A DNA stretch of 64,000 bases from assembly GCA_016203945.1 (NCBI GenBank), contig JACQLT010000001.1, positions 6,645-70,644 on the forward strand. Direction: 5' to 3'. The notes below the pieces were generated by a model that was given only the letters and a program-made list of their open reading frames with translations, was not told the origin of the DNA and did not search any database. This document shows, piece after piece, positions 3,481 through 44,319 of the stretch (the first letter of the stretch is position 1; each line of letters opens with the position of its first letter). The stretch is from Parcubacteria group bacterium (GTDB lineage: Bacteria > Patescibacteriota > Minisyncoccia > Minisyncoccales > UBA10102). A program made the position numbers and the translations under genes.

Positions 3481-4761
3481 TCATGCTTGCGTTACCCGTT
3501 TGATTCTTGCTCCCAGCTTCTGAAGGCGTTCCTCAATGCGTTCATATCCCCGATCAATCTGATAGATATTGTTAATGGTGCTCCTGCCTTTTGCGATAAG
3601 AGCGGCCATGAGAAGCGCTGCTCCCCCCCGGATGTCAAAGGTGCCGAGATCCGTTCCCTGCAGCTGGGTGGGGCCGTTGATGATGGCGCGGTGAGGGTCT
3701 GCGATGTAAATCTGGGCTCCCATTTTGTTCAATTCTTCCAAATACTTCAGCCGGCTCTCGTATAGAGGATCGTGCAGCAAGGTAGACCCTTGGGCTTGCG
3801 TAGCCAATACTCCGAATGCGTTCTGAAGATCAGATGCAATGCCGGGATAAATGAAACTCTGGATGTGTTCAATCCTGATGGACTTGGCGGGAAGCACCCG
3901 CACGTGAGCAAAGCCCTTCTTCTTGTTCCCAATCTTTACCTTGGCTCCGGCTTCCTTCAGGCGCTTGAAAAATAGATCCAGATAGCGAACTTCCACATTC
4001 TTTACCAGCACGGTTCCCTTTGTCCCGATCGCAAGCAGGATAAAAGTGGCGGCCTCAATGGGATCATACGACAGTGTGTGATGAAATCCTCTAAGATTCT
4101 TTTTGCCCTGAACCTCAAACACGTGAGGGCTAAGCTGCCGTATGGCAGCCCCCATGCTCTGTAATACCGAAACGAGTTCTTGGGTCTGGTAGTCCTGGTC
4201 TGCAATTTTAAGAAGCACCGGCGAGGACAGATGCGCCGCAAACAAGAGTGTATTGCAGGTTCCGGTCACAGAAAACTCGTTCAGCACCACCTCTCCTCCC
4301 TTTGAAGGGCGTTCTAAATTAAGGCTCACGCCCGTTTTATTTTTCCGAACCTTCGCTCCCAATTGCAAAAACGCGTCCAAGTGCGTATCAATGGGACGAG
4401 CTCCGATGATATCTCCTCCGGGCTGGGGAAGAGAAACTTTACCGAATCTGGCAAGAAGAGGGCCTAAAAAAAGGACGCTCCCGCGGAGCCGTAATACGGT
4501 CTCCCGCTTCATCAAAGAAGGGTTGAGTTTTGCGGTGTTCACGAGGATCCTGCGCTTTCTCTGCCACACGATTGTAGCTCCCATACTCTCCAATATCTCA
4601 AGCATGCGGAACACGTCTTCAATGAGCGGAAGATTGTCAATCACGCAGTCTTTTTTCGTAAGAATGGTGGCGGCTAAGACGGGAAATACTGCGTTCTTCG
4701 CCCCCCTCACCTCAATGGTTCCTCGCAAAGGCTTTCCTCCTTTGATGACGAACATTTCCAT
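3481..4761 (-). CDS. murA: UDP-N-acetylglucosamine 1-carboxyvinyltransferase
   Basis: 426 aa MurA-like; catalytic loop reads PGGDIIGARPID (Asp where E. coli has Cys115). Confidence 0.9.
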   Translation of the reverse strand: MEMFVIKGGKPLRGTIEVRGAKNAVFPVLAATILTKKDCVIDNLPLIEDVFRMLEILESMGATIVWQRKRRILVNTAKLNPSLMKRETVLRLRGSVLFLGPLLARFGKVSLPQPGGDIIGARPIDTHLDAFLQLGAKVRKNKTGVSLNLERPSKGGEVVLNEFSVTGTCNTLLFAAHLSSPVLLKIADQDYQTQELVSVLQSMGAAIRQLSPHVFEVQGKKNLRGFHHTLSYDPIEAATFILLAIGTKGTVLVKNVEVRYLDLFFKRLKEAGAKVKIGNKKKGFAHVRVLPAKSIRIEHIQSFIYPGIASDLQNAFGVLATQAQGSTLLHDPLYESRLKYLEELNKMGAQIYIADPHRAIINGPTQLQGTDLGTFDIRGGAALLMAALIAKGRSTINNIYQIDRGYERIEERLQKLGARIKRVTQA

Positions 4762-4767
4762 GCGCCT

Positions 4768-4796
4768 ATGGTATCGTGAAATATGATATAATGCAA
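4768..4796 (-). promoter_or_regulatory. murA promoter, leaderless type
   Basis: TTGCAT-17-TACCAT then 6 nt to ATG. Confidence 0.5.
4784..4792 (+). promoter_or_regulatory. extended -10 for PEGA gene, leaderless type
   Basis: TGaTATAAT, 7 nt to ATG 4800. Confidence 0.5.
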
Positions 4797-4799
4797 CAG

Positions 4800-5918
4800 A
4801 TGACCAAACGCACGAGAACTCTTCTCTTTTTCTCTTTGGTGCTGCTTTTCTCCGTGGTAGCTCCAGCCCTCATTTTGTACTCGTTGGGGTATCGCGTTGA
4901 CTGGCAAGAAGGAAGTATTGCCCAAACAGGAGGCCTTTATATTAAAACGGATCCTGCCAATGCCGTTATTTCTATCAATGGCAAGCAAGAAAAGAAAACT
5001 GATTTCCTCTTCGGCGAGCTTTTTGTGGATAACCTGCTTCCCGGAACCTACGCGGTGAAGATAGAAAAGGAAGGATACAAGCCCTGGCAGAAAAATCTTG
5101 TAGTACAAGCAAAGCAGGTGACGGAGGCGAAAAATATCATGCTATTTCCAGCCCAGACCGCCCTCAAAACACTGTTTGATTCTGTCGAGGAGGTATGGCC
5201 ATCTCCCGACTTGAACCTCCTCCTGCTTCAGCAAACATCCCCCCAAAGAGAAAGACACCTCTTGCTCTGGAACCCCAGAACCAACAAAGAGACCCCTGTA
5301 ATACAGCGGCTCACTTTTACTCAGAAAATCCAAAGCGTTCAATGGGATAAAAACGGAAAGGCCTTCCTTGTCCAGTTCCAGAAAGGAGGAGGCCAACCCC
5401 TGGTATTTAATGAGCAGGGAGAACCCTGCAAGGAATCTTTCTGTCTTGAGAACATTCTCAAGATTCAGCCCACGGACCAAGAAAAATTTCTTTCTGCCGC
5501 AGAAGAATCCTTGCGGCAGATTTTTCCTCAGATACAAGAACGAGCGCTCAGCCCTGATGAAAAGAAAATAGCCCTGACACAGGGTTCTGAGCTCTGGCTC
5601 CTCTACCTTCAGGACGACGAAGGTCAGCCCAAAAGAACTAAAGGAGAGCGGGTATTCTTAAGCAGGTTTGGAGAACAGATACAGAACCTTTCTTGGGTGA
5701 GCAACCACTATCTTCTATTGGGTATTGGCGGCGACGTTCGGATCGTAGAGATTGATGACCGAGATTCTCTGAATACGATCTCTTTGGGCTCATTCCCTGC
5801 CTTGCCTGCCTCGCCGGTAGGCGGGCCAAACCTTCGTATTTTCTGGGACAACAAAGAAAAAGTTATCTACATCCTGGGCAACGGCATCCTCTCGGTTTCA
5901 GAAAAACTCCTCCGATAG
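4800..5918 (+). CDS. membrane-anchored PEGA-domain protein
   Basis: N-terminal TM helix then PEGA-like block (YIKTDPANAVISINGK...LLPGTYAVKIEKEGYKPW); ATG 4800 preferred over GTG 4776 because TGaTATAAT lies 7 nt upstream. Confidence 0.6.
   Translation: MTKRTRTLLFFSLVLLFSVVAPALILYSLGYRVDWQEGSIAQTGGLYIKTDPANAVISINGKQEKKTDFLFGELFVDNLLPGTYAVKIEKEGYKPWQKNLVVQAKQVTEAKNIMLFPAQTALKTLFDSVEEVWPSPDLNLLLLQQTSPQRERHLLLWNPRTNKETPVIQRLTFTQKIQSVQWDKNGKAFLVQFQKGGGQPLVFNEQGEPCKESFCLENILKIQPTDQEKFLSAAEESLRQIFPQIQERALSPDEKKIALTQGSELWLLYLQDDEGQPKRTKGERVFLSRFGEQIQNLSWVSNHYLLLGIGGDVRIVEIDDRDSLNTISLGSFPALPASPVGGPNLRIFWDNKEKVIYILGNGILSVSEKLLR
5796..5825 (+). repeat. hybrid A/B-like 30-nt element in plus-strand PEGA gene
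   Basis: cctgccttgcc (first 11 nt of family B) + tgcctcgccggtaggcggg (family-A-like hairpin); encodes PALPASPVGG. Confidence 0.45.
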
Positions 5919-5987: not shown

Positions 5988-6437
5988 CTACCGTTTCCTC
6001 CACTGCGTGGCGCGGCGGGCTCGGTGAAGTCCGAACTTCTTGCGCTCGCGCATGCGGGGATCTCTCGTTAAGAATCCAAGCGCTCTCAAGCGGCTTCTCA
6101 GCTCGGGGTCTCCTGCGACAAGAGCACGAGCTACGCCGTGACGGATGGCTTCTGCCTGAGCTGGCAATCCCCCGCCCTTCGTCAACACCTTCACCAAGAA
6201 AGAATCTTCTGTGCCGGCTTTTTCCAAAGATTCCTTGGCTACCCGCTGGAGTTCTGAATCCTGAAAGTATTGCTCCACCGGTTTCTCGTTCACCGTGAAT
6301 TTCTGCTCTTTAGTTTTTGAGGATGTAGGCCAAAGACGGACACGCGCCGTTGCGGTCTTTCTCCGTCCTACCCCCTCCAGATATTTGCCTGCCTGCGCAG
6401 GCAGGCCTTCTTTGTTGGTTTCTTTCTGCGCCGCCAT
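5988..6437 (-). CDS. rpsI: 30S ribosomal protein S9
   Basis: C-terminal ...GGGLPAQAEAIRHGVARAL...RKKFGLHRARRATQWRKR; start at MAAQKE (alternative 6452). Confidence 0.9.
   Translation of the reverse strand: MAAQKETNKEGLPAQAGKYLEGVGRRKTATARVRLWPTSSKTKEQKFTVNEKPVEQYFQDSELQRVAKESLEKAGTEDSFLVKVLTKGGGLPAQAEAIRHGVARALVAGDPELRSRLRALGFLTRDPRMRERKKFGLHRARRATQWRKR
6387..6406 (-). repeat. family B short variant (perfect 20-nt palindrome), rpsI copy
   Basis: gcctgcctgcgcaggcaggc; encodes (G)LPAQAG. Confidence 0.7.
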
Positions 6438-6441
6438 ATGG

Positions 6442-6804
6442 TTATGCCTCAATCGTCAATCGTTTGATAGTTTTGTTGCGCAGCCGGTTCTTGGGCAGCA
6501 TACCAAAGACGGCCCTTCTCAGTACTTCTGTCGGACGCTTGGCAAAAAGCGCCGCAAGAGGCTCTTTATGCAATCCTCCCATATATCCTGAGTGAGTGTA
6601 GTATATCTTCTGGCTGAGCTTCTTTCCGCTCAGCCTGATGCGCTTTGCGTTCTTCACGAGCACACGAGCCTCGCCGTCTATGTGGTGGCGAAAATCCACC
6701 CTGTTCTTGCCGCGCAGCAAAACCGCAACACGCACAGCCAACCTGCCCAAGGGCTGGTCGGTAGCGTCTACGACATGCGCGGGTTGTTTCTTGTTCTGTT
6801 CCAT
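6442..6804 (-). CDS. rplM: 50S ribosomal protein L13
   Basis: L13-like 120 aa, conserved rplM-rpsI pair. Confidence 0.9.
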   Translation of the reverse strand: MEQNKKQPAHVVDATDQPLGRLAVRVAVLLRGKNRVDFRHHIDGEARVLVKNAKRIRLSGKKLSQKIYYTHSGYMGGLHKEPLAALFAKRPTEVLRRAVFGMLPKNRLRNKTIKRLTIEA

Positions 6805-7188: not shown

Positions 7189-7980
7189 TACCTTCTTCTT
7201 TGAAACCCGCTTCTTTCCGACAGCCGTTTTCCCCGCCTTGCTGCGAGGCAGGTTTGTCTTCTTCTCTTTCTTTTCCTCGGAGGGAGACGTTTCCTCTCTG
7301 CTCAGCCCTTCTCCGATGCGCTGGAATTGCCCCTGGAGGGTTTCGATTGCCTGCGCCAGGGCTGCTGTAGGAGTAAGCGCGCCGTCGGTCTCAATCTCTA
7401 GAATGAGCCGGTCAAAGTCGGTTCGCTCCCCAACACGCATGGCTTCCACCCGGAAGCTCACACGCCTGACAGGAGAGAAGACGGCGTCCAGGGCGATTGC
7501 TCCGATCTCTTGTTTTTCGCCTTTGCGCGCCTCCACGGCCACGTATCCGACGCCTCGCTCAATGCGCAGTTCCATGTCCAGCTCCGCGTGCTTATCCTGC
7601 AAGGTAGCGATGGCCATATCCTTGTTTATCACCTGAACCTCAGAGGAGGTTTTGATATCTCCTGCTTTTACCTTTTTCTCTCCCTTTACCTTGAGGGTCA
7701 CCGCCTGAGGTTCGTCTGAAAACATGCGAAAGCGCACCTGCTTGAGGCGCAAAAGAATGGTCACTACATCTTCTGTAACTCCGGGAATGGCCGAAAACTC
7801 ATGGGCAACACCCTTGATCTTCACCTGAGTAATGGCTGCTCCCTGCAAAGAAGAAAGGAGCACCCGCCTGAGCGTGTTCCCAACGCTCACTCCATATCCA
7901 GGATACAAAGCTTCAATCTCAAACACTCCCTTGTTCTCTGTCTGTTGCACTGTTTTTGCTGGTTGTGGAAGAGGAATCAT
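7180..7980 (-). CDS. rpoA: DNA-directed RNA polymerase alpha subunit, N-terminal domain plus Lys-rich tail (no alpha-CTD)
   Basis: alpha-NTD similarity over about 225 aa; ends in SREETSPSEEKKEKKTNLPRSKAGKTAVGKKRVSKKKVLK. Confidence 0.85.
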   Translation of the reverse strand: MIPLPQPAKTVQQTENKGVFEIEALYPGYGVSVGNTLRRVLLSSLQGAAITQVKIKGVAHEFSAIPGVTEDVVTILLRLKQVRFRMFSDEPQAVTLKVKGEKKVKAGDIKTSSEVQVINKDMAIATLQDKHAELDMELRIERGVGYVAVEARKGEKQEIGAIALDAVFSPVRRVSFRVEAMRVGERTDFDRLILEIETDGALTPTAALAQAIETLQGQFQRIGEGLSREETSPSEEKKEKKTNLPRSKAGKTAVGKKRVSKKKVLK

Positions 7981-11156: not shown

Positions 11157-13034
11157 TTAGGAAGTTTTCAAAAGATGTCCGCGAATTCTCCGCACCCCGG
11201 CCGATACCGCTTCCTGTTTTCCGATGCGGAATCCCCCCACCTCTCTTGTGTGCTGCACGTGAGGGCCTCCGCACAGTTCTCTGGAGAACACGTCTCCTGT
11301 CTCAGGATTTCGGGCGGAATACACTTTCACCACGTCAGGATACTTCTCTCTCGGGGAATACAGAGCTCCCAAAGCTACCGCTTCCTGAAAGGGCATTTCC
11401 TTATATCCCATATCAAGATTCTGGCGAATCGCTTCGTTCACCAAGAACTCTATTTGTCGCACCTCTTCATCCGTCAGCTTCCGATCAAACGTAAAGTCAA
11501 AGCGGGTGCGTTCCGGGGTGATGTCAGAACCTGCCTGATGCACGCTTTCCCCTAATACCTTGCGCAGGGCAGCCTGCAGCAAATGGGTTGCCGTATGCAA
11601 ACGCGTGACAACCTTCAGTTCCTCCTCGTTCGCCGCCTTCAGCTCTCCCGTATCTAGTAAGAGCCCATGACCTCCGAACTTTCGCTCTTTCCCTGCTCTT
11701 GAAATTTCCTGATGTTTTCGAAATTCCTCATCAAATTCTTCCCTATCAATAAAAAGTGCGTGTTCGGCTAACAATTCGTTAATGAGCTCTAGTGGAAATC
11801 CATAACTCTGATATAAATCAAATGCTTCTTTTGGAGATATAGCATTGATGGTATAGGCAGACTTTTTACGAAGGTTTTTCGGAGGCCATCTAACAGCATA
11901 TTTTTTTTTGTTCTTTTCTCTTGATAAAAGCTTCTGAAACTCTGTAAGGCCCTTTTCAAGAGTCTTGCTAAATCTATCTGTCTCTTTCTGTAAAACTTCT
12001 AAAATAACCGACTTTTCTTCTCGTAAATTATTATAGTCAGGAACCTTACCATATATTCGTATGATTTCTTCTGCAGGACTTAAATAAAATTTTGAATCTA
12101 ACCCAGCTCCGATGTACTTATAGTGATTAAGCATGGCTCGCCTTATTAATCTCCGCAAAATATAACCCGCTTCTTTATTTGAGGGTCTTATTCCGTCTCC
12201 GATCAAAAATATACTGGCACGTAGGTGATCGGCAATAACACGGAGCTTTTCTATTGGTTTATCTCCAATAATTTCAATGATTGAACTGAAAATTGACATA
12301 AACAAATCTGTCTCGAATATATTCTTCTTGCCTTGGACAACCATCGCCAGTCTTTCTAACCCCATGCCGGTATCTACTCCCGGCTTCTCTAGCTTCCGCA
12401 ACTTCTTGTCCTTTGAGCAGTAGTACTCGTTGAATACGATGTTCCAGACCTCGGTGTTGTTGATATAGAGCTCGGTAGTGGGACCGCAGGGTCCCTCAGC
12501 TCCTGTGGGCCCCCAGAAGTTGTCCTCTCTCCCCTCCTCTCTGATATCCTTGACGCCAAGCTCACTCCAGAACTTTTTTGACTCCTCATCTCTGGGAACC
12601 TCCTTGTCTCCCCCGAACACGGTCACATACTGAATCTTCAACCCAATTTCTTTCAAGAACTCATGGGCAAGCCGTATCGCCTCCTCCTTGAAGTATCCGC
12701 CAAAAGAGAAGTTTCCAAGCATCTCAAAGAAGGTGAGGTGGGTCTCGTCTCCGACGCTGTCAATGTCTGAGGTGCGGAAGGATTTTTGAATGGATACCGC
12801 GTTCCTGCTTCCCAGGAACTTCCCTCCCAAGGTTTGATGAGGAGAAGACATGGGATCTGCCTCTCCCGTGTAATAGGGCTTAAACTGCTGCATGCCTGCC
12901 GTGGTAAGAAGCACAGAGGCGTCATCTGGAACCAAAGAAGACGAGGGCACAATGGTGTGCTTCCCGCCCGTGGCGGGTCCGCCTTGGGCGGAAAAAAACT
13001 CCAAAAATCTCCTGCGCAACTCCTGCGACTCCAT
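11157..13034 (-). CDS. alaS: alanyl-tRNA synthetase, short form (625 aa, no C-Ala domain)
   Basis: TAGMQQFKP, FEMLGNFSFGGYFK, GMGLERL, editing-domain HTATHLL and CGGPH motifs. Confidence 0.9.
   Translation of the reverse strand: MESQELRRRFLEFFSAQGGPATGGKHTIVPSSSLVPDDASVLLTTAGMQQFKPYYTGEADPMSSPHQTLGGKFLGSRNAVSIQKSFRTSDIDSVGDETHLTFFEMLGNFSFGGYFKEEAIRLAHEFLKEIGLKIQYVTVFGGDKEVPRDEESKKFWSELGVKDIREEGREDNFWGPTGAEGPCGPTTELYINNTEVWNIVFNEYYCSKDKKLRKLEKPGVDTGMGLERLAMVVQGKKNIFETDLFMSIFSSIIEIIGDKPIEKLRVIADHLRASIFLIGDGIRPSNKEAGYILRRLIRRAMLNHYKYIGAGLDSKFYLSPAEEIIRIYGKVPDYNNLREEKSVILEVLQKETDRFSKTLEKGLTEFQKLLSREKNKKKYAVRWPPKNLRKKSAYTINAISPKEAFDLYQSYGFPLELINELLAEHALFIDREEFDEEFRKHQEISRAGKERKFGGHGLLLDTGELKAANEEELKVVTRLHTATHLLQAALRKVLGESVHQAGSDITPERTRFDFTFDRKLTDEEVRQIEFLVNEAIRQNLDMGYKEMPFQEAVALGALYSPREKYPDVVKVYSARNPETGDVFSRELCGGPHVQHTREVGGFRIGKQEAVSAGVRRIRGHLLKTS
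12963..12992 (-). repeat. family A 30-nt in-frame double-hairpin element, alaS copy
   Basis: cccgcccgtggcggg|tccgccttgggcgga; encodes SAQGGPATGG. Confidence 0.8.
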
Positions 13035-17028: not shown

Positions 17029-18041
17029 TGTTTGCGCAAAAAAGCTGCTGCTTGTTCCGGCTCAATGGTGGATATCTCAATACCCGTGCTAATCTCAAAC
17101 CCCGCCCAGGTTGAGGTCTTGGGGAATATCTCCAGGTGCCAGTGGTAATACATGTGCTTTCCTTCGTCCACGGGAGCCGTGTGGATGAAATAGTTGTAGT
17201 CGGGATTATTCAGGGCCCTTGAGAGCTTCTTCATGGCAACCAACAAGACTTCTGAGAACTGTTCTTTCTGTCGCTCGATTATCTGTTCAAAATACGAAAG
17301 GTGCGCCTTGGGATACACACGGACCTCAAATGCAACCCTTGAAGCGAACGGGCACAGGACAACAAAGGCGTCGTTTTCAAAGACGATGCGCTTCTTCTCC
17401 TTCAGATCCCACTCCAGCATGCTGCAGTGCACGCATGTGTTGTATGTGACAAAATATTGTTTTGATCCCCGCAGGCTACGCTGGATGTCTGCTGCGATGA
17501 CCGGGGTCGCGATGAGCTGGGAATGTGGGTGGGCGATGGTCGCTCCCGCAGCCTTTCCCTTGTTCTTGAAGATAGAAATGTAATCTACAAACTCTTTTTT
17601 CATGAGGCTCAAGTACCGCTCTTGGTAAACATCTATAAGCTCTTTTGTTTCTGACAAGGAAAATTCAGGGATGTCTCTCGTGTGGTCCTTCGTAATGATT
17701 ACCTCATGGAATCCCACGCCCTCCATGGTCTGATAGGGACCGATGATGCTTGTGTGGGGAGAAGCAATGGGAGAAAACGCCGGATACTTGTTCGGGATTG
17801 CGATGGTGCTCCATGCCGACCCCTGCCCAACCTGTTTTCCATTCAAGAAAATGGCAGTAGGCTTCTCCTGCTCATCAAGTTTCTCAAAGGGACATGCGGA
17901 AGCAGAATCTTCCACCGAAACCCGCGCATCTTTCTGAAACGTTTCGGGACGCCGCGCGCGTCCGGTTGCGATCAGTACCCAGTCCTGAGAGACAGGATCC
18001 AATCTAAGCTCTGAGGGAAACTTTTGCTTCTTATCTTTCAT
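17025..18041 (-). CDS. galactose-1-phosphate uridylyltransferase-like (GalT/HIT superfamily)
   Basis: NKYPAF and HPHSQL (HxHxQ) motifs, two half-barrel repeats. Confidence 0.7.
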   Translation of the reverse strand: MKDKKQKFPSELRLDPVSQDWVLIATGRARRPETFQKDARVSVEDSASACPFEKLDEQEKPTAIFLNGKQVGQGSAWSTIAIPNKYPAFSPIASPHTSIIGPYQTMEGVGFHEVIITKDHTRDIPEFSLSETKELIDVYQERYLSLMKKEFVDYISIFKNKGKAAGATIAHPHSQLIATPVIAADIQRSLRGSKQYFVTYNTCVHCSMLEWDLKEKKRIVFENDAFVVLCPFASRVAFEVRVYPKAHLSYFEQIIERQKEQFSEVLLVAMKKLSRALNNPDYNYFIHTAPVDEGKHMYYHWHLEIFPKTSTWAGFEISTGIEISTIEPEQAAAFLRKQ

Positions 18042-18783
18042 ATATTCCTTTCCAAAGGTTAATCCTGATTTTCAATACTTCAAGCAGCATCTTTATCATG
18101 CCAGACAGCTTCACCCTGCTATTGGGATCATTGATCCATCTGACCGGAATCTCTTGTATTTTGTATTTGCGTTTCTTCGCCAGGACGAGAATTTCTACGT
18201 CAAACGCCCACCTGTCAATAGTGGCCCGCGAAAACAATTCTTCCGCCGCCTTTCTGGTAAATCCCTTAAACCCGCACTGCGTGTCCCATATGCCCCAGAG
18301 GCCCGAGATGGTCTGGACGATGAGGTTAAAGATATCTCCCAGGCGCATCCGCAGCCAAGACTGGGGCACAGGAAGCTCGGCTCCCTTGATGTCGCGGGAA
18401 CCAATGACCACCTCAAATCCCTTTTCTCCGCCAGAGGCGGACCCGCCTTGGGCGGGAAACCATGGCCACATTCGTTCCACCTGATCTACCGAAGTTGAGT
18501 TGTCGGCATCCATAAACAGGCGAAAGTCCCCGTGCGCAGCCAGCATGCCCTGTTTTACCGTGTATCCCTTTCCACGATTCTCCTTGCGATCAATAAGCCA
18601 AAGATTCTTGATAGATTCCGCCGCCTGCCGCACCACGTCTGCCGTGCTGTCTTTGGAGCCGTCGTTCACCACCAGAATCTCGTATTTATAGGATTGCCTC
18701 CTCAAGTATTCATCCACCGCCTTCAAGGTATTCGGAAGGCGCTCTGCCTCGTTGTATGCGGGAATAATAACAGATAATCGCAT
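18031..18783 (-). CDS. family 2 glycosyltransferase (dolichyl/polyprenyl-phosphate hexosyltransferase-like)
   Basis: SVIIPAYNE, VNDGSKDST, DADNS motifs. Confidence 0.8.
   Translation of the reverse strand: MRLSVIIPAYNEAERLPNTLKAVDEYLRRQSYKYEILVVNDGSKDSTADVVRQAAESIKNLWLIDRKENRGKGYTVKQGMLAAHGDFRLFMDADNSTSVDQVERMWPWFPAQGGSASGGEKGFEVVIGSRDIKGAELPVPQSWLRMRLGDIFNLIVQTISGLWGIWDTQCGFKGFTRKAAEELFSRATIDRWAFDVEILVLAKKRKYKIQEIPVRWINDPNSRVKLSGMIKMLLEVLKIRINLWKGIYER
18427..18456 (-). repeat. family A element, glycosyltransferase copy
   Basis: tccgccagaggcgga|cccgccttgggcggg; encodes PAQGGSASGG. Confidence 0.8.
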
Positions 18784-26815: not shown

Positions 26816-27328
26816 TTATATGCTCTTCCTTCTGAACATGCGTCTCATCCCTTGTTCTTTTTTCGGTACCTCCTTTCGTGTCATAGCTCGTGGAATCTGT
26901 TTTCTGGATTCGTCTTTCATCGTCTGTTCCTGCTCATCTTGAACTTCCTGCGCCTCTTGCACTGCTTTGGATTCCTGCTTTTTCTCTTTTAATTCTTCGC
27001 GGGATCCCAGCACCAAGGTAATGTGTGAGGTCTTCTTTTGAATCTCGAAGGCCTGGCCGCGCGAGCGTGCCCTCCGGCGCTTTAGCTTAGAACCTTCATC
27101 TACGGTAAGCTTCTCAATATACATCTGATTCTCCTGAACTTCAAAACGTAGCTTTGCTGCGGCTGCAGCTGCCTTCAGAAGTTTGGAGAAGGAATCGGTC
27201 CCTTTCTTGGTGGTAAAGCGCAAAATCGCCTCAGCTTCTCTGATGCTTTTTCCCCGGATCAAATCTGCCACGAGGCGGACCTTTCTGGGAGCTATTCTTA
27301 GGTTGCGTAATGTTGCGGATGATTGCAT
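26816..27328 (-). CDS. rplV: 50S ribosomal protein L22 with acidic/basic C-terminal extension
   Basis: Start at MQSSATLRNLRIAPRKVRLVADLIRG; ORF-track start 27451 overlaps rpsS. Confidence 0.88.
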   Translation of the reverse strand: MQSSATLRNLRIAPRKVRLVADLIRGKSIREAEAILRFTTKKGTDSFSKLLKAAAAAAKLRFEVQENQMYIEKLTVDEGSKLKRRRARSRGQAFEIQKKTSHITLVLGSREELKEKKQESKAVQEAQEVQDEQEQTMKDESRKQIPRAMTRKEVPKKEQGMRRMFRRKSI

Positions 27329-27332
27329 GGGA

Positions 27333-27716
27333 TTATTTTCCGCCAGAGGCGGATCCGTCTTTGGCGGACTTTCCTTCTGCTGACGCAGCTGTGGTTGCTG
27401 CCGCTGCCGCCTGTTGCCCTTGCTCAAGTTCCTTCTGGATCCTTCCTCCATGCTTGCCGAACTTAGTGGAGGGAGAAAACTCTCCCAACCTATGGCCTAC
27501 CATTTCTTCAACCACGAGCACGGGAATAAAATCCTTCCCGTTGTGCACGCCAAAGGAAAATCCGATCATGTCGGGAGTGATGGTAGCAGCCCTGCTCCAG
27601 GTCTTTATCACGGTCTTGCCTGCCTTGCCGTCAGGCAGGTCCCCTGACTTGAGCTTTTTGACCTTGAGCATGAGCTTCTCGTCTATATACGGGCCTTTTT
27701 TGAGTGATCGAGCCAT
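27333..27716 (-). CDS. rpsS: 30S ribosomal protein S19 carrying two in-frame hairpin elements
   Basis: MARSLKKGPYID...TWSR...VHNGK...EMVGHRLGEF; 7-aa LPDGKAG insertion and Ala/Gly-rich C-terminal extension. Confidence 0.92.
   Translation of the reverse strand: MARSLKKGPYIDEKLMLKVKKLKSGDLPDGKAGKTVIKTWSRAATITPDMIGFSFGVHNGKDFIPVLVVEEMVGHRLGEFSPSTKFGKHGGRIQKELEQGQQAAAAATTAASAEGKSAKDGSASGGK
27339..27368 (-). repeat. family A element, rpsS 3'-end copy
   Basis: tccgccagaggcgga|tccgtctttggcgga; encodes SAKDGSASGG just before stop. Confidence 0.75.
27619..27639 (-). repeat. family B 21-nt in-frame hairpin element, rpsS copy
   Basis: cctgccttgccgtcaggcagg; encodes LPDGKAG; identical to 44222-44242. 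Confidence 0.85.
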
Positions 27717-36080: not shown

Positions 36081-36287
36081 ATGACACGAACATGCGCCCT
36101 GTGCGGAAAAGGGATCAACAAAGCGTGGACGCTCGTAAAGCTCCGCGGAAAATACAACCCGAGCACTTCTCACAGACAGAAGCCGAATTTGCAATGGCTC
36201 CGCTTGCCTGTCTCGCAGCAAGGCGGACTTTCTGGAAAACGCATACGGGCCTGCACGAAGTGCATCAAGGCGCTGGGGAAACGATAA
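36081..36287 (+). CDS. rpmB: 50S ribosomal protein L28
   Basis: MTRTCALCGKG...PNLQ...; start 36081 not 36045. Confidence 0.8.
   Translation: MTRTCALCGKGINKAWTLVKLRGKYNPSTSHRQKPNLQWLRLPVSQQGGLSGKRIRACTKCIKALGKR

Positions 36288-42676: not shown

Positions 42677-44319
<1,643 letters not shown>

Follow-up and report, generated by a model that had tools for sequence, protein, structure and literature searches.

The 30 bp at positions 18427–18456 of the window, the whole 64,000-nucleotide stretch of DNA analysed here, are probably a copy of a widespread repeat that encodes no product of its own, a mobile palindrome of minimal size that is non-autonomous and that the host protein carries as a surface loop. 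This repeat, here called family A, is apparently undescribed; no description of it was found in the searchable literature. The copy is a dyad-symmetric double hairpin (80% G+C, no strand assigned) inside a gene encoding a 250-residue GT2-family dolichyl-/polyprenyl-phosphate glycosyltransferase (GT; 18031–18783, minus strand; Pfam PF00535/PF10111/PF13641), the product being named 'glycosyltransferase family 2 / dolichyl-phosphate beta-glucosyltransferase' in source annotations. As the first-pass annotation had stated, it comprises two perfect 6-bp stems with 3-nt loops, which read on the plus strand TCCGCC-AGA-GGCGGA (half-unit 1, 18427–18441) and CCCGCC-TTG-GGCGGG (half-unit 2, 18442–18456; closing pair C-G, T-A in the consensus). 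The minimum-free-energy fold as DNA consists of the same two hairpins. Read on the minus strand, CCC GCC CAA GGC GGG TCC GCC TCT GGC GGA encodes P-A-Q-G-G-S-A-S-G-G, residues 110–119 of the GT.

When the 64-kb window was searched with the consensus TCCGCCNNNGGCGGATCCGCCNNNGGCGGA, allowing up to three mismatches, exactly three sites were found (12963–12992, 18427–18456 and 27339–27368), compared to none in 100 dinucleotide shuffles; a scan for decayed copies to seven mismatches yielded no further real copy. The two sister copies, likewise without assigned strand, lie in alaS (alanine--tRNA ligase, 625 aa; 11157–13034, minus strand), where the sequence is CCCGCC-CGT-GGCGGG TCCGCC-TTG-GGCGGA, and at the 3' end of rpsS (ribosomal protein S19, 127 aa; 27333–27716, minus strand), where it is TCCGCC-AGA-GGCGGA TCCGTC-TTT-GGCGGA, with one stem mismatch. 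The first half of the GT copy is indeed identical to that of the rpsS copy (both TCCGCCAGAGGCGGA; 27339–27353 in rpsS). Its second half had been described as one base off that of the alaS copy (TCCGCCTTGGGCGGA); the two in fact differ at two bases, which form the closing pair (C-G versus T-A, a compensatory change) around an identical 13-nt core (CCGCCTTGGGCGG).

Alleles with and without the element (filled and empty) were compared for the GT and S19. The closest GT homologs (85–90% identity) lack exactly the 10 residues, or 30 nt, of the element, and the closest relative of the window S19 (L213, 89% aa identity) lacks exactly 30 nt between AAG and AAA TAA; the GT and S19 copies are thus insertions, since the closest homologs lack precisely these 30 nt. 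In the sense of the GT gene, the downstream half of the target, GAAAAG (E-K; 18421–18426, minus strand), is unchanged in empty alleles, and the upstream half, TGG TTT (W-F; 18457–18462, minus strand), corresponds to GAA YTT (E-F/L). The boundaries are unambiguous at both loci, and neither has the target-site duplication proposed for the flanks; on the plus strand, the GT context (...CCCTTTTC|element|AAACCATGG...) contains no direct repeat. As judged from these alignments, the comparison establishes that exactly 30 bp were inserted into the GT gene as one block, with no duplication of the target, at a TTY|RAA junction in a surface loop. The filled GT site recurs in independent assemblies (the window, L001, L126 and L165). 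The filling of identical GT and AlaRS sites in polyphyletic lineages, with odd details in common, is not predicted by simple transposition.

The GT copy is positioned in a loop between a helix (residues 98–108) and a strand (residues 124–127). Alignment with PDB 5mlz (DPMS) leaves a 10-residue gap at the insertion point, and in an AF2 model of the GT residues 111–121 are coil with pLDDT below 50. The alaS copy reads SAQGGPATGG and is placed between FF and KH of the N-terminal AlaRS motif, where human AlaRS aligns with a 7-residue gap. In S19 the copy reads SAKDGSASGG, followed by K and the stop codon, and a protein containing it is recorded from NCBI as well as Logan assemblies. At 110 aa, the closest empty homolog is 17 aa shorter, 10 of these being due to family A and 7 to a second repeat in rpsS, family B (CTGCCT-GACGGCA-AGGCAG, 21 nt). 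Once translated, the host proteins would contain the stretches ...WFPAQGGSASGGEK... and ...SAKDGSASGGK. Clean 10-residue insertions were also found in many unrelated hosts, including AspRS-, CysRS- and RecG-like proteins and T9SS C-terminal domains. The best reading of these data is that the element is tolerated as a flexible 10-residue Ser/Ala/Gly surface loop.

Family A extends well beyond the window. At least 120 stretches were found in GTDB species genomes, compared to a chance estimate of ~0.03 in 50%-GC DNA, and the carriers among the matches listed include many Patescibacteria classes, Omnitrophota, PVC phyla and others. All of these listed matches come from MAGs or a SAG, with Mb-scale contigs among the carriers. 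The element is 70–80% G+C and its host loci average 44%. The consensus is TCCGCC-nrA-GGCGGA-TCCGCC-Tyn-GGCGGA, around an invariant central palindrome, A-GGCGGA-TCCGCC-T (central segment AGGCGGATCCGCCT, with a BamHI site, GGATCC, at the centre). Dimers are the rule among the matches listed (135 dimers and no trimers), and most apparent monomers prove to be dimers of which one partner is degenerate. Within each half the closing pairs co-vary, T-A and C-G occurring 105 and 12 times at positions 0–14 and 109 and 15 times at positions 15–29, where about two C-G pairs would be expected; across the 30-mer, C-G was found four times at positions 0–29 and G-C never at positions 14–15. As covariation occurs within each 15-mer and not across the 30-mer, the unit is two hairpins and not one long one. 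A single long hairpin, the minimum-free-energy fold of the RNA, was rejected as contradicted by the covariation. An origin as a perfect 30-nt palindrome was also discarded, the loops being complementary in 19 of 127 copies compared to 16.3 ± 3.6 in shuffles. Rfam covariance models gave a single match, which at 15 bits (E 0.88) fell short of the gathering score of 35.6.

In the 127 copies examined among the matches listed, variation is confined to the loops, which are drawn from a small alphabet; 29% of these copies have the half TCCGCCAGAGGCGGA and 13% have the core CCGCCTTGGGCGG. There is no statistical linkage between loop 1 and loop 2, and a random pair of copies shares a given half with a probability of 0.17. 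With a small loop alphabet and unlinked loops, the sharing of halves among the three window copies is expected without recombination, and the earlier view of the copies as recombinants of the same two half-units is not borne out. The accompanying argument that they are an inserted repeat and not convergent codon usage does hold, given homologs that lack exactly 30 nt, the near-identity across the element of window and L001 GT genes that otherwise diverge, and other genomes in which the same 30-mer is found outside coding DNA and in each of the three reading frames.

Coding and non-coding copies have similar flanks, with T at position −2 in 75–78% and A at position +31 in 88–95%; a logo of 61 coding and 24 non-coding copies was T-rich on the 5' side and A-rich on the 3' side only. 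The family flanks can be summarized as TTY|RAA, the rpsS copy having AAG upstream in place of the T's, and the empty GT site of 60 homologs is close to this (T90 T98 Y95 | R98 A91, i.e. TTY|RA). Within open frames of at least 600 nt, the matches listed were distributed over the three frames as 55/9/5, so that 55 of 69 encode S-A-x-G-G twice; for Patescibacteria the counts were 32/4/1, with 37 of the 55 copies listed lying in such frames. Part of this bias comes from the target itself, since a T|RA junction that fell in phase 1 would give a stop codon: in the window CDSs, the phase counts are 26:0:12 for TTTRAA sites and 144:32:66 for TTYRA sites.

Decayed coding copies were found in relatives, reading SSQEKSALSQR (P0142), SVKGGSVSGGK (L210) and PATKGGSAPGGQ (L212), and a further relative (L152) retains a 12-nt remnant encoding SVGG. 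They suggest that the element is translated and decays as coding sequence. The first-pass annotation had inferred recent spread, which stands for the GT copy relative to its nearest relatives and not for the alaS and rpsS copies, which are older, as decayed versions are present in relatives. Near-identical genomes lacking the GT copy were sought to date the insertion, but a metagenome scan returned relatives at no more than 63% identity, and L002 was rejected as an empty alaS site because its last ORF proved not to be alaS. Insertion polymorphism within a population was not observed, leaving current mobility unproven.

The persistence of the element inside genes can be explained in part from the data above and in part by inference. 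Its length is a multiple of three, and one of its frames has no stop and encodes Ser-Ala-x-Gly-Gly twice. Owing to the palindrome this peptide is encoded from either strand. The hairpins are followed by A's and not U's on both strands and should not work as an intrinsic terminator. Translation would then yield a flexible loop of 10 residues, and copies in other frames would be selectively lost.

How the element moves can be proposed only tentatively. A trans-acting enzyme may recognize the hairpins in single-stranded or cruciform DNA and catalyze seamless insertion and excision, by analogy with HUH/Y1 'peel-and-paste' transposition (IS200/IS605, REP-RAYT), which the inferred mobility resembles; no mobilizing enzyme was identified in the 64 kb of genome examined. 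Known HUH systems require guide and cleavage sequences outside the hairpins, and this counts against mobility of that type, since 30 bp leave no room for them. The symmetric T-rich/A-rich flanks also fit a double-stranded palindromic target better than a strand-specific single-stranded one. A phage or plasmid vector was rejected, with only three matches in 2.9 million IMG/VR contigs and none in PLSDB plasmids (7.3 Gb) or INPHARED phage genomes (2.3 Gb). So was a larger parent element bounded by 15-mers: the 1.6 kb between copies in Kiritimatiellae L010 encode a TIM-barrel enzyme and a STAS protein and no transposase. More speculative still is the idea that the 30-mer is the substrate of a dedicated insertion system of Patescibacteria, Omnitrophota and PVC-type uncultivated bacteria, which would recognize two minimal hairpins and paste them seamlessly at TTY|RAA. 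If so, no smaller mobile element would be known from bacteria, and the 30-mer would write Gly/Ser loops into essential proteins independently of orientation, at permissive sites that it hits again and again; besides being a parasite, it would thereby supply variation in protein loops across phyla.

Among the alternatives, the likeliest, though still unlikely, is that a filled allele, once made, is taken up as DNA by related lineages and spreads through homologous recombination over short tracts or through gene conversion. A bias of uptake or repair towards the palindrome may add to this, comparable to DNA uptake sequences or to co-conversion of the homing type. Filled alleles of the GT, AlaRS and S19 have a polyphyletic distribution and always have empty ones as nearest neighbours, which is compatible with DNA uptake sequences. 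The GT genes of the window and L001 differ by ~20% overall, yet 49 of 50 nt are identical around the element and only 1 of 45 differs across the element and its upstream flank. Three filled GT alleles have TGG TTT upstream, where empty ones have GAA/TAT YTT, and AlaRS copies in three or four lineages involve the same non-trivial replacement, a net gain of 7 and not 10 residues; the TGG and the +7 replacement hint at a transfer of alleles by recombination. Co-conversion tracts beside yeast mitochondrial GC clusters provide a precedent (PMC4478555). However, such transfer leaves the first insertion unexplained, as well as the common TTY|RAA flanks and the occurrence of copies, across phyla, in non-coding DNA and in numerous unrelated genes. 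The W also occurs in two empty GT alleles, and the L126 and L165 alleles differ from that of the window at many flank and loop positions, excluding recent transfer among them.

Templated copying without a dedicated enzyme, in which a nascent strand would, in the course of replication or repair, switch to another copy as template via T-run/A-run microhomology, copy the stable hairpins and switch back, is less probable again. It would account for T/A-rich flanks that accompany coding and non-coding copies and pre-exist at empty sites, for the absence of target-site duplication and for AlaRS copies that replace sequence and do not merely add it. Against it, 3 nt of microhomology is very little, the boundaries in the GT and S19 are exact, and the S19 copy has AAG and not T's upstream; the near-identical sequence across phyla and the strict dimer form also remain unaccounted for.

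Convergent acquisition of a selected module, with Ser-Ala-x-Gly-Gly or the mRNA hairpins serving as flexible linker, in translational pausing or in mRNA stability, is very improbable. The strong bias to the S-A-x-G-G frame and the co-varying closing pairs would agree with it, as would stem changes in decayed coding copies, mostly C->T, after which G.U pairing persists in the sense RNA. However, this excess of C->T is explained by silent third positions, which confound G.U preservation as a test of RNA- versus DNA-level selection, and the RNA fold is predicted as one long hairpin that covariation does not support. Furthermore, the 30-mer is also found outside coding DNA and in both of the other frames, the hosts are functionally unrelated and their closest homologs work without it, and peptide selection does not need codons fixed as TCC GCC ... 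GGC GGA across phyla. An assembly or library artefact can practically be dismissed: the exclusive origin of the at least 120 matches from MAGs or a SAG, their absence from the plasmid and phage collections and the linker-like look of the BamHI-centred sequence would favour it, but carrier lineages are almost entirely uncultivated, so isolates are absent, the orthologous site is filled in independent studies and assemblers, Mb-scale contigs and a SAG are among the carriers, and evolution in vivo is reflected in the frame bias, the decayed copies, the varying loops and the compensatory changes of closing pairs.

The preferred reading, a mobile palindrome accommodated as a loop, was compared to known systems, of which Rickettsia palindromic elements, REPs and mitochondrial GC clusters or double-hairpin elements are the nearest analogues. 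Comparable double hairpins are found as double-hairpin elements in the fungus Allomyces. Other GC-rich palindromic analogues are GC42 and related yeast mitochondrial GC clusters, short hairpin elements of unexplained mechanism (PMC4478555), and the repetitive hairpin elements of sponge mitochondria (PMC2800124). These mitochondrial elements are ~30–80 nt long, reside in AT-richer genomes and in some cases in coding regions, and have units that merge or shuffle; family A resembles them in its GC-rich double hairpin, sporadic presence and absence, and constrained stems. They are organellar and unrelated in sequence, whereas family A is bacterial-chromosomal, and GC42 has an AG target duplication (AG/TAG) where family A has none and targets TTY|RAA.

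Rickettsia palindromic elements (RPEs) are found in-frame in many unrelated, often essential genes, are translated, and are viewed as selfish DNA at permissive sites (PMC10969869). Family A shares with them the in-frame position in unrelated genes (GT, AlaRS, S19, AspRS-, CysRS- and RecG-like, T9SS). RPEs are, in contrast, ~100–150 bp long, form about ten families and are confined to Rickettsia, while family A is 30 bp, consists of two hairpins only, occurs in several phyla and gives the same peptide from either strand; set against RPE descriptions, there was no obvious resemblance.

REPs and REPINs are similar in being 20–40-nt imperfect palindromes with many copies and no target duplication that are thought to be recognized as hairpins. 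Family A likewise consists of 15-nt hairpins, always paired to 30 nt, and is repeated three times in the 64 kb of the window and in at least 120 stretches of species genomes; the L010 copies, which lie within a 185-nt composite intergenic repeat with other hairpin motifs, recall BIMEs. REP ends are defined by the tags GTAG or CGTC (PMC3733652); the flank logo of family A shows neither head. REPs are also extragenic, whereas all three window copies are intragenic, as most are in Patescibacteria, and a REPIN is an inverted REP pair forming one long hairpin where family A has tandem hairpins. No RAYT was identified in the 64 kb examined. Like MITEs, the element is non-autonomous, and its two 15-mers are inverted repeats of each other, i.e. 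terminal inverted repeats without an interior; MITEs are usually 50–500 bp, with an internal, usually AT-rich region and a target-site duplication, both of which are missing here. Intrinsic terminators share the GC-rich stem-loop, but with T-runs upstream and A-runs downstream on both strands family A has no 3' U tract, and its copies are found within genes that are intact.

If this is correct, a sequence of 30 bp without a gene has colonized conserved housekeeping genes in a large part of the uncultivated bacteria, among them those for aminoacyl-tRNA synthetases, ribosomal protein S19 and glycosyltransferases. Its coding symmetry, Ser-Ala-x-Gly-Gly from either strand, would make the palindrome nearly invisible to selection inside genes. 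The element would explain puzzling 10-residue indels in Patescibacteria protein alignments, and such indels would be unreliable as phylogenetic characters, given that unrelated lineages have them at identical sites. The element would also provide a concrete marker with which to search for the mobility mechanism, and a bacterial counterpart of the mitochondrial GC clusters and double-hairpin elements, with which it could be studied jointly.

The glycosyltransferase (GT) copy of family A (18427–18456), which reads TCCGCC-AGA-GGCGGA CCCGCC-TTG-GGCGGG on the plus strand, forms two perfect 6-bp stems with 3-nt loops, as claimed in the first-pass annotation and confirmed by direct reading, and has a G+C content of 80% compared to ~51% for the window. 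The consensus TCCGCCNNNGGCGGATCCGCCNNNGGCGGA, allowing up to three mismatches, matched exactly three sites in the window (12963–12992, 18427–18456 and 27339–27368) and none across 100 shuffles, and no further real copy was found in the window at up to seven mismatches. The first half of the GT copy is identical to that of the rpsS copy, as reported earlier, whereas its second half differs from the alaS copy by two bases and not one; the two share a 13-nt core and differ only in the closing pair (C-G vs T-A).

The host gene (18031–18783, minus strand) encodes a 250-residue GT2 enzyme (PF00535/PF10111/PF13641), annotated at the source as a dolichyl-phosphate beta-glucosyltransferase. On its sense strand the element reads CCC GCC CAA GGC GGG TCC GCC TCT GGC GGA (PAQGGSASGG), and the nearest homologs (P0002–P0005, 85–90% identity) are 240 residues long and lack precisely those ten residues, with WPEF^EKGF in place of WPWF-PAQGGSASGG-EKGF (^ marks the junction). 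At the DNA level, ...CCG GAA CTT^GAA AAA GGG... in the empty allele L002 corresponds to ...CCA TGG TTT^30 nt^GAA AAG GGA... in the window. Neither boundary can be placed differently and no direct repeat flanks the element; the insertion thus lacks the target-site duplication raised in the first-pass annotation. In an alignment to the Pyrococcus DPMS structure 5mlz the ten residues sit in a gap, and in an AlphaFold model (mean pLDDT 63, N-terminal half good) they form a coil between helix 98–108 and strand 124–127 with pLDDT <50. Two other homologs, P0107 and P0108, carry one and three tandem copies, respectively, of a 15-residue unit, YFRKETRSLSEAKDS, in the same loop, which is thus confirmed as a permissive hot spot.

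The rpsS gene (27333–27716, minus strand) encodes a 127-residue S19 ending in AEGK-SAKDGSASGG-K, compared to 110 residues in the closest relative, L213 (89% at the amino acid level). Relative to L213 (...GTA AAG^AAA TAA), the window (...GGA AAG^30 nt^AAA TAA) contains an exact 30-nt insert without duplication, and decayed copies were found in L210 and L211 (TCC GTT AAA GGT GGA TCC GTC TCT GGC GGA, SVKGGSVSGG) and, in a different form, in L212 (PATKGGSAPGG). The leftover seven-residue difference is due to another type of hairpin, family B (GCCTGCCTTGCCGTCAGGCAGG; stem 7 bp, loop 7 nt), present as an exact 21-nt in-frame insert, CTG CCT GAC GGC AAG GCA GGC (LPDGKAG), after SGD in the window and L212 but not in L213, L210 or L211; S19 thus bears two different hairpin insertions. 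Family B occurs in the window as identical 22-mers (27618–27639, 44221–44242), as weaker copies (5804–5825, 7231–7252, 36207–36226) and at an additional site (6388–6405), and the GT homolog P0016 has a 7-residue insert, AGLPAGE, at another GT site (aligned to window residues ~63–64) that resembles LPDGKAG at the peptide level. The rpsS TAA (27333–27335) lies one codon past the family-A copy and the rplV ATG (27326–27328) follows 4 nt on, placing the GGCGGA of the element ~11 nt upstream of the L22 start.

In alaS (11157–13034, minus strand; N-terminus MESQELRRRFLEFF-SAQGGPATGG-KH), the site is occupied by FFEKRGH or similar in 116 of 120 AlaRS homologs. P0148 and P0230 contain the element at the same position, P0142 a decayed version of it (FFSSQEKSALSQRH), and P0228 a copy elsewhere in the protein (ALHFF-PARGGSAFGG-KEKYP). 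Four lineages have a filled GT loop (the window, P0006/L001, P0024/L126 and L165), and for GT, AlaRS and S19 alike the nearest neighbours of every filled allele are empty only. L152 (metagenome contig OBEQ010416266.1, ~2001–2717), which is closely related to the filled allele L165, holds a 12-nt remnant at the GT site, TCA GTG GGC GGG (SVGG), the sequence of which suggests internal deletion of the element and not precise excision.

The anatomy of the element was studied in 127 copies gathered by exact stem pattern, in which stem variation is readable at the closing pairs only; as this pattern fixes the stems, the informative positions are elsewhere. The closing pairs covary within each 15-mer (positions 0–14: T-A 105, C-G 12, C-A 8, T-G 2; positions 15–29: T-A 109, C-G 15, C-A 2, T-G 1), with ~2 C-G pairs expected at either under independence, and no covariation was seen across the 30-mer (four C-G at positions 0–29, no G-C at 14–15). 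What is conserved is thus a pair of small hairpins, the fold also obtained with DNA energy parameters (−13.6 kcal/mol); RNA parameters favour one long hairpin. Loop 1 follows nrA (AGA, GGA, AAA, GAA, CGA, CAA) and loop 2 Tyn (TTT, TTC, TCT, TCC, TTG), in non-coding copies likewise, making the central palindrome A-GGCGGA-TCCGCC-T the most invariant part. Across the 127 copies the loops are unlinked and not complementary above chance. Units were found in dimeric form only (135 dimers vs zero trimers), and the majority of seeming monomers are paired with a degenerate unit.

A family pattern that is its own reverse complement, YCCGCCNNNGGCGGRYCCGCCNNNGGCGGR, was scanned on one genome per GTDB species (596 Gb) and matched at least 120 stretches, compared to our calculated chance expectation of ~0.03 for 50%-GC DNA and a handful in very GC-rich genomes; host loci have a mean G+C of 44%. 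By database record names, the matches listed include the Patescibacteria classes Kaiser-, Sacchari-, Portnoy-, Lipton-, Magasanik-, Doudna-, Moran-, Campbell-, Terry-, Giovannoni-, Buchanan-, Davies-, Falkow-, Kerfeld-, Sung- and Tagabacteria, as well as Omnitrophota (one single-cell genome included), Kiritimatiellae, Planctomycetes, Lentisphaerae, Verrucomicrobia, Ignavibacteria/Bacteroidota, Chloroflexota and a few more. Third-party MAGs labelled 'uncultured Gammaproteobacteria' (L015, L018, L025, L027, L038, L039, L054, L082, L083, L095, L104) carry copies mostly in-frame, as in Patescibacteria; the best local match of the L018 AspRS-like protein (51% identity) is on a Saccharibacteria contig, and these labels appear doubtful and may be wrong. 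The pattern occurred in only three IMG/VR contigs (L123, L124, L125) and was absent from the plasmid and phage records searched (PLSDB, INPHARED). Local BLAST among the fetched loci revealed clean 10-residue inserts in AspRS-, CysRS- and RecG-like proteins, sugar-binding proteins and T9SS C-terminal domains, the latter in Ignavibacteria/Chitinophagales MAGs (...VQF^SAKGGSASGG^N...SGVYFY in L042, L060 and L100; NPF^..^NP in L056). In the Kiritimatiellae MAG L010, family A lies inside a 185-nt composite intergenic repeat (4569–4752 and 6390–6572) of BIME-like organisation that also holds other hairpin motifs, e.g. GTCATTCCGAGCGTAG...GGAATC, and an extra degenerate copy is found at ~4775–4800.

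Flanks are T-rich 5' and A-rich 3' in coding and non-coding copies (T at −2 in 78% and 75%; A at +31 in 88% and 95%, respectively). As the empty GT site already reads T90 T98 Y95 ^ R98 A91 (percent of 60 homologs), these bases belong to the target and not to the element. In AlaRS and AspRS-like proteins the empty site is FF^EK, and at the protein level F precedes the insert in 28 of 61 cases and K/E/N/D follows; the T-run on the 5' side is dispensable, as seen at the S19 site (AAG^AAA). Of the 69 copies in open frames ≥600 nt long, 55 use the S-A-x-G-G frame (frame counts in Patescibacteria, 32:4:1). Reverse complementation of TCC GCC nnn GGC GGA gives back the same pattern, so Ser-Ala-x-Gly-Gly is read in both orientations. 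In phase 1, T^RA would create a stop codon, so part of the bias stems from the target itself (junction phases in the window's genes: TTTRAA 26:0:12; TTYRA 144:32:66). The PPxADPPxAE phase is nevertheless depleted well past this effect (one observed vs ~10 expected), and selection on the peptide therefore also acts. Decayed copies retain the reading frame with altered amino acids, a sequence pattern indicating that the insert is translated. In PVC bacteria most copies lie in short open frames and each of the three phases is represented, so they are probably intergenic.

The earlier proposal that a DNA element has spread, as opposed to convergent codon usage, is supported by these results. Rickettsia palindromic elements, a form of selfish DNA inserted in-frame, are similar in function (PMC10969869), and mitochondrial GC clusters and double-hairpin elements in structure (PMC4478555). 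Family A has no GTAG/CGTC head or long REPIN hairpin and is not extragenic, as REP/REPIN would be; it also fails the defining tests for MITEs and terminators and matches no Rfam family. No description was found in the full-text literature, in which most subscription journals are outside coverage, making an earlier description possible.

The recurrence at the same sites is compatible with repeated insertion into a favoured target at one of the few sites that tolerate it, but also with filled alleles being passed on through short-tract recombination. Some recombination is favoured by TGG TTT upstream of three filled GT alleles, compared to GAA/TAT YTT in empty ones, although the W also occurs in two empty alleles, and by the AlaRS copies, all of which show a net gain of seven residues (FF-EKRG-H to FF-SAKGGSATGGK-H). 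Recombination of half-units, as proposed in the first-pass annotation, does not follow from the shared halves: two random members match in a given half with a probability of 0.17, and 29% of copies have the GT first half, more than any other variant, and 13% its second-half core.

Insertion without duplication would involve a trans-acting protein recognising the hairpins or central palindrome in single-stranded or cruciform DNA, which would both insert and excise the 30-mer. The closest known chemistry is the HUH/Y1 'peel-and-paste' of IS200/IS605 and REP-RAYT. An HUH-like mechanism specifically appears rather unlikely, the 30-mer being too small for guide sequences and the target appearing symmetric; no mobilising enzyme was found, including between the two L010 copies. 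Alternatives are template switching and allele transfer or gene conversion. The analysis demonstrated seamless insertion of exactly 30 bp at a TTY^RAA target, two conserved hairpins in a strict dimer form, presence and absence among close relatives, and decay through point mutation and internal deletion. Family A is probably a mobile palindrome that is tolerated as a loop.
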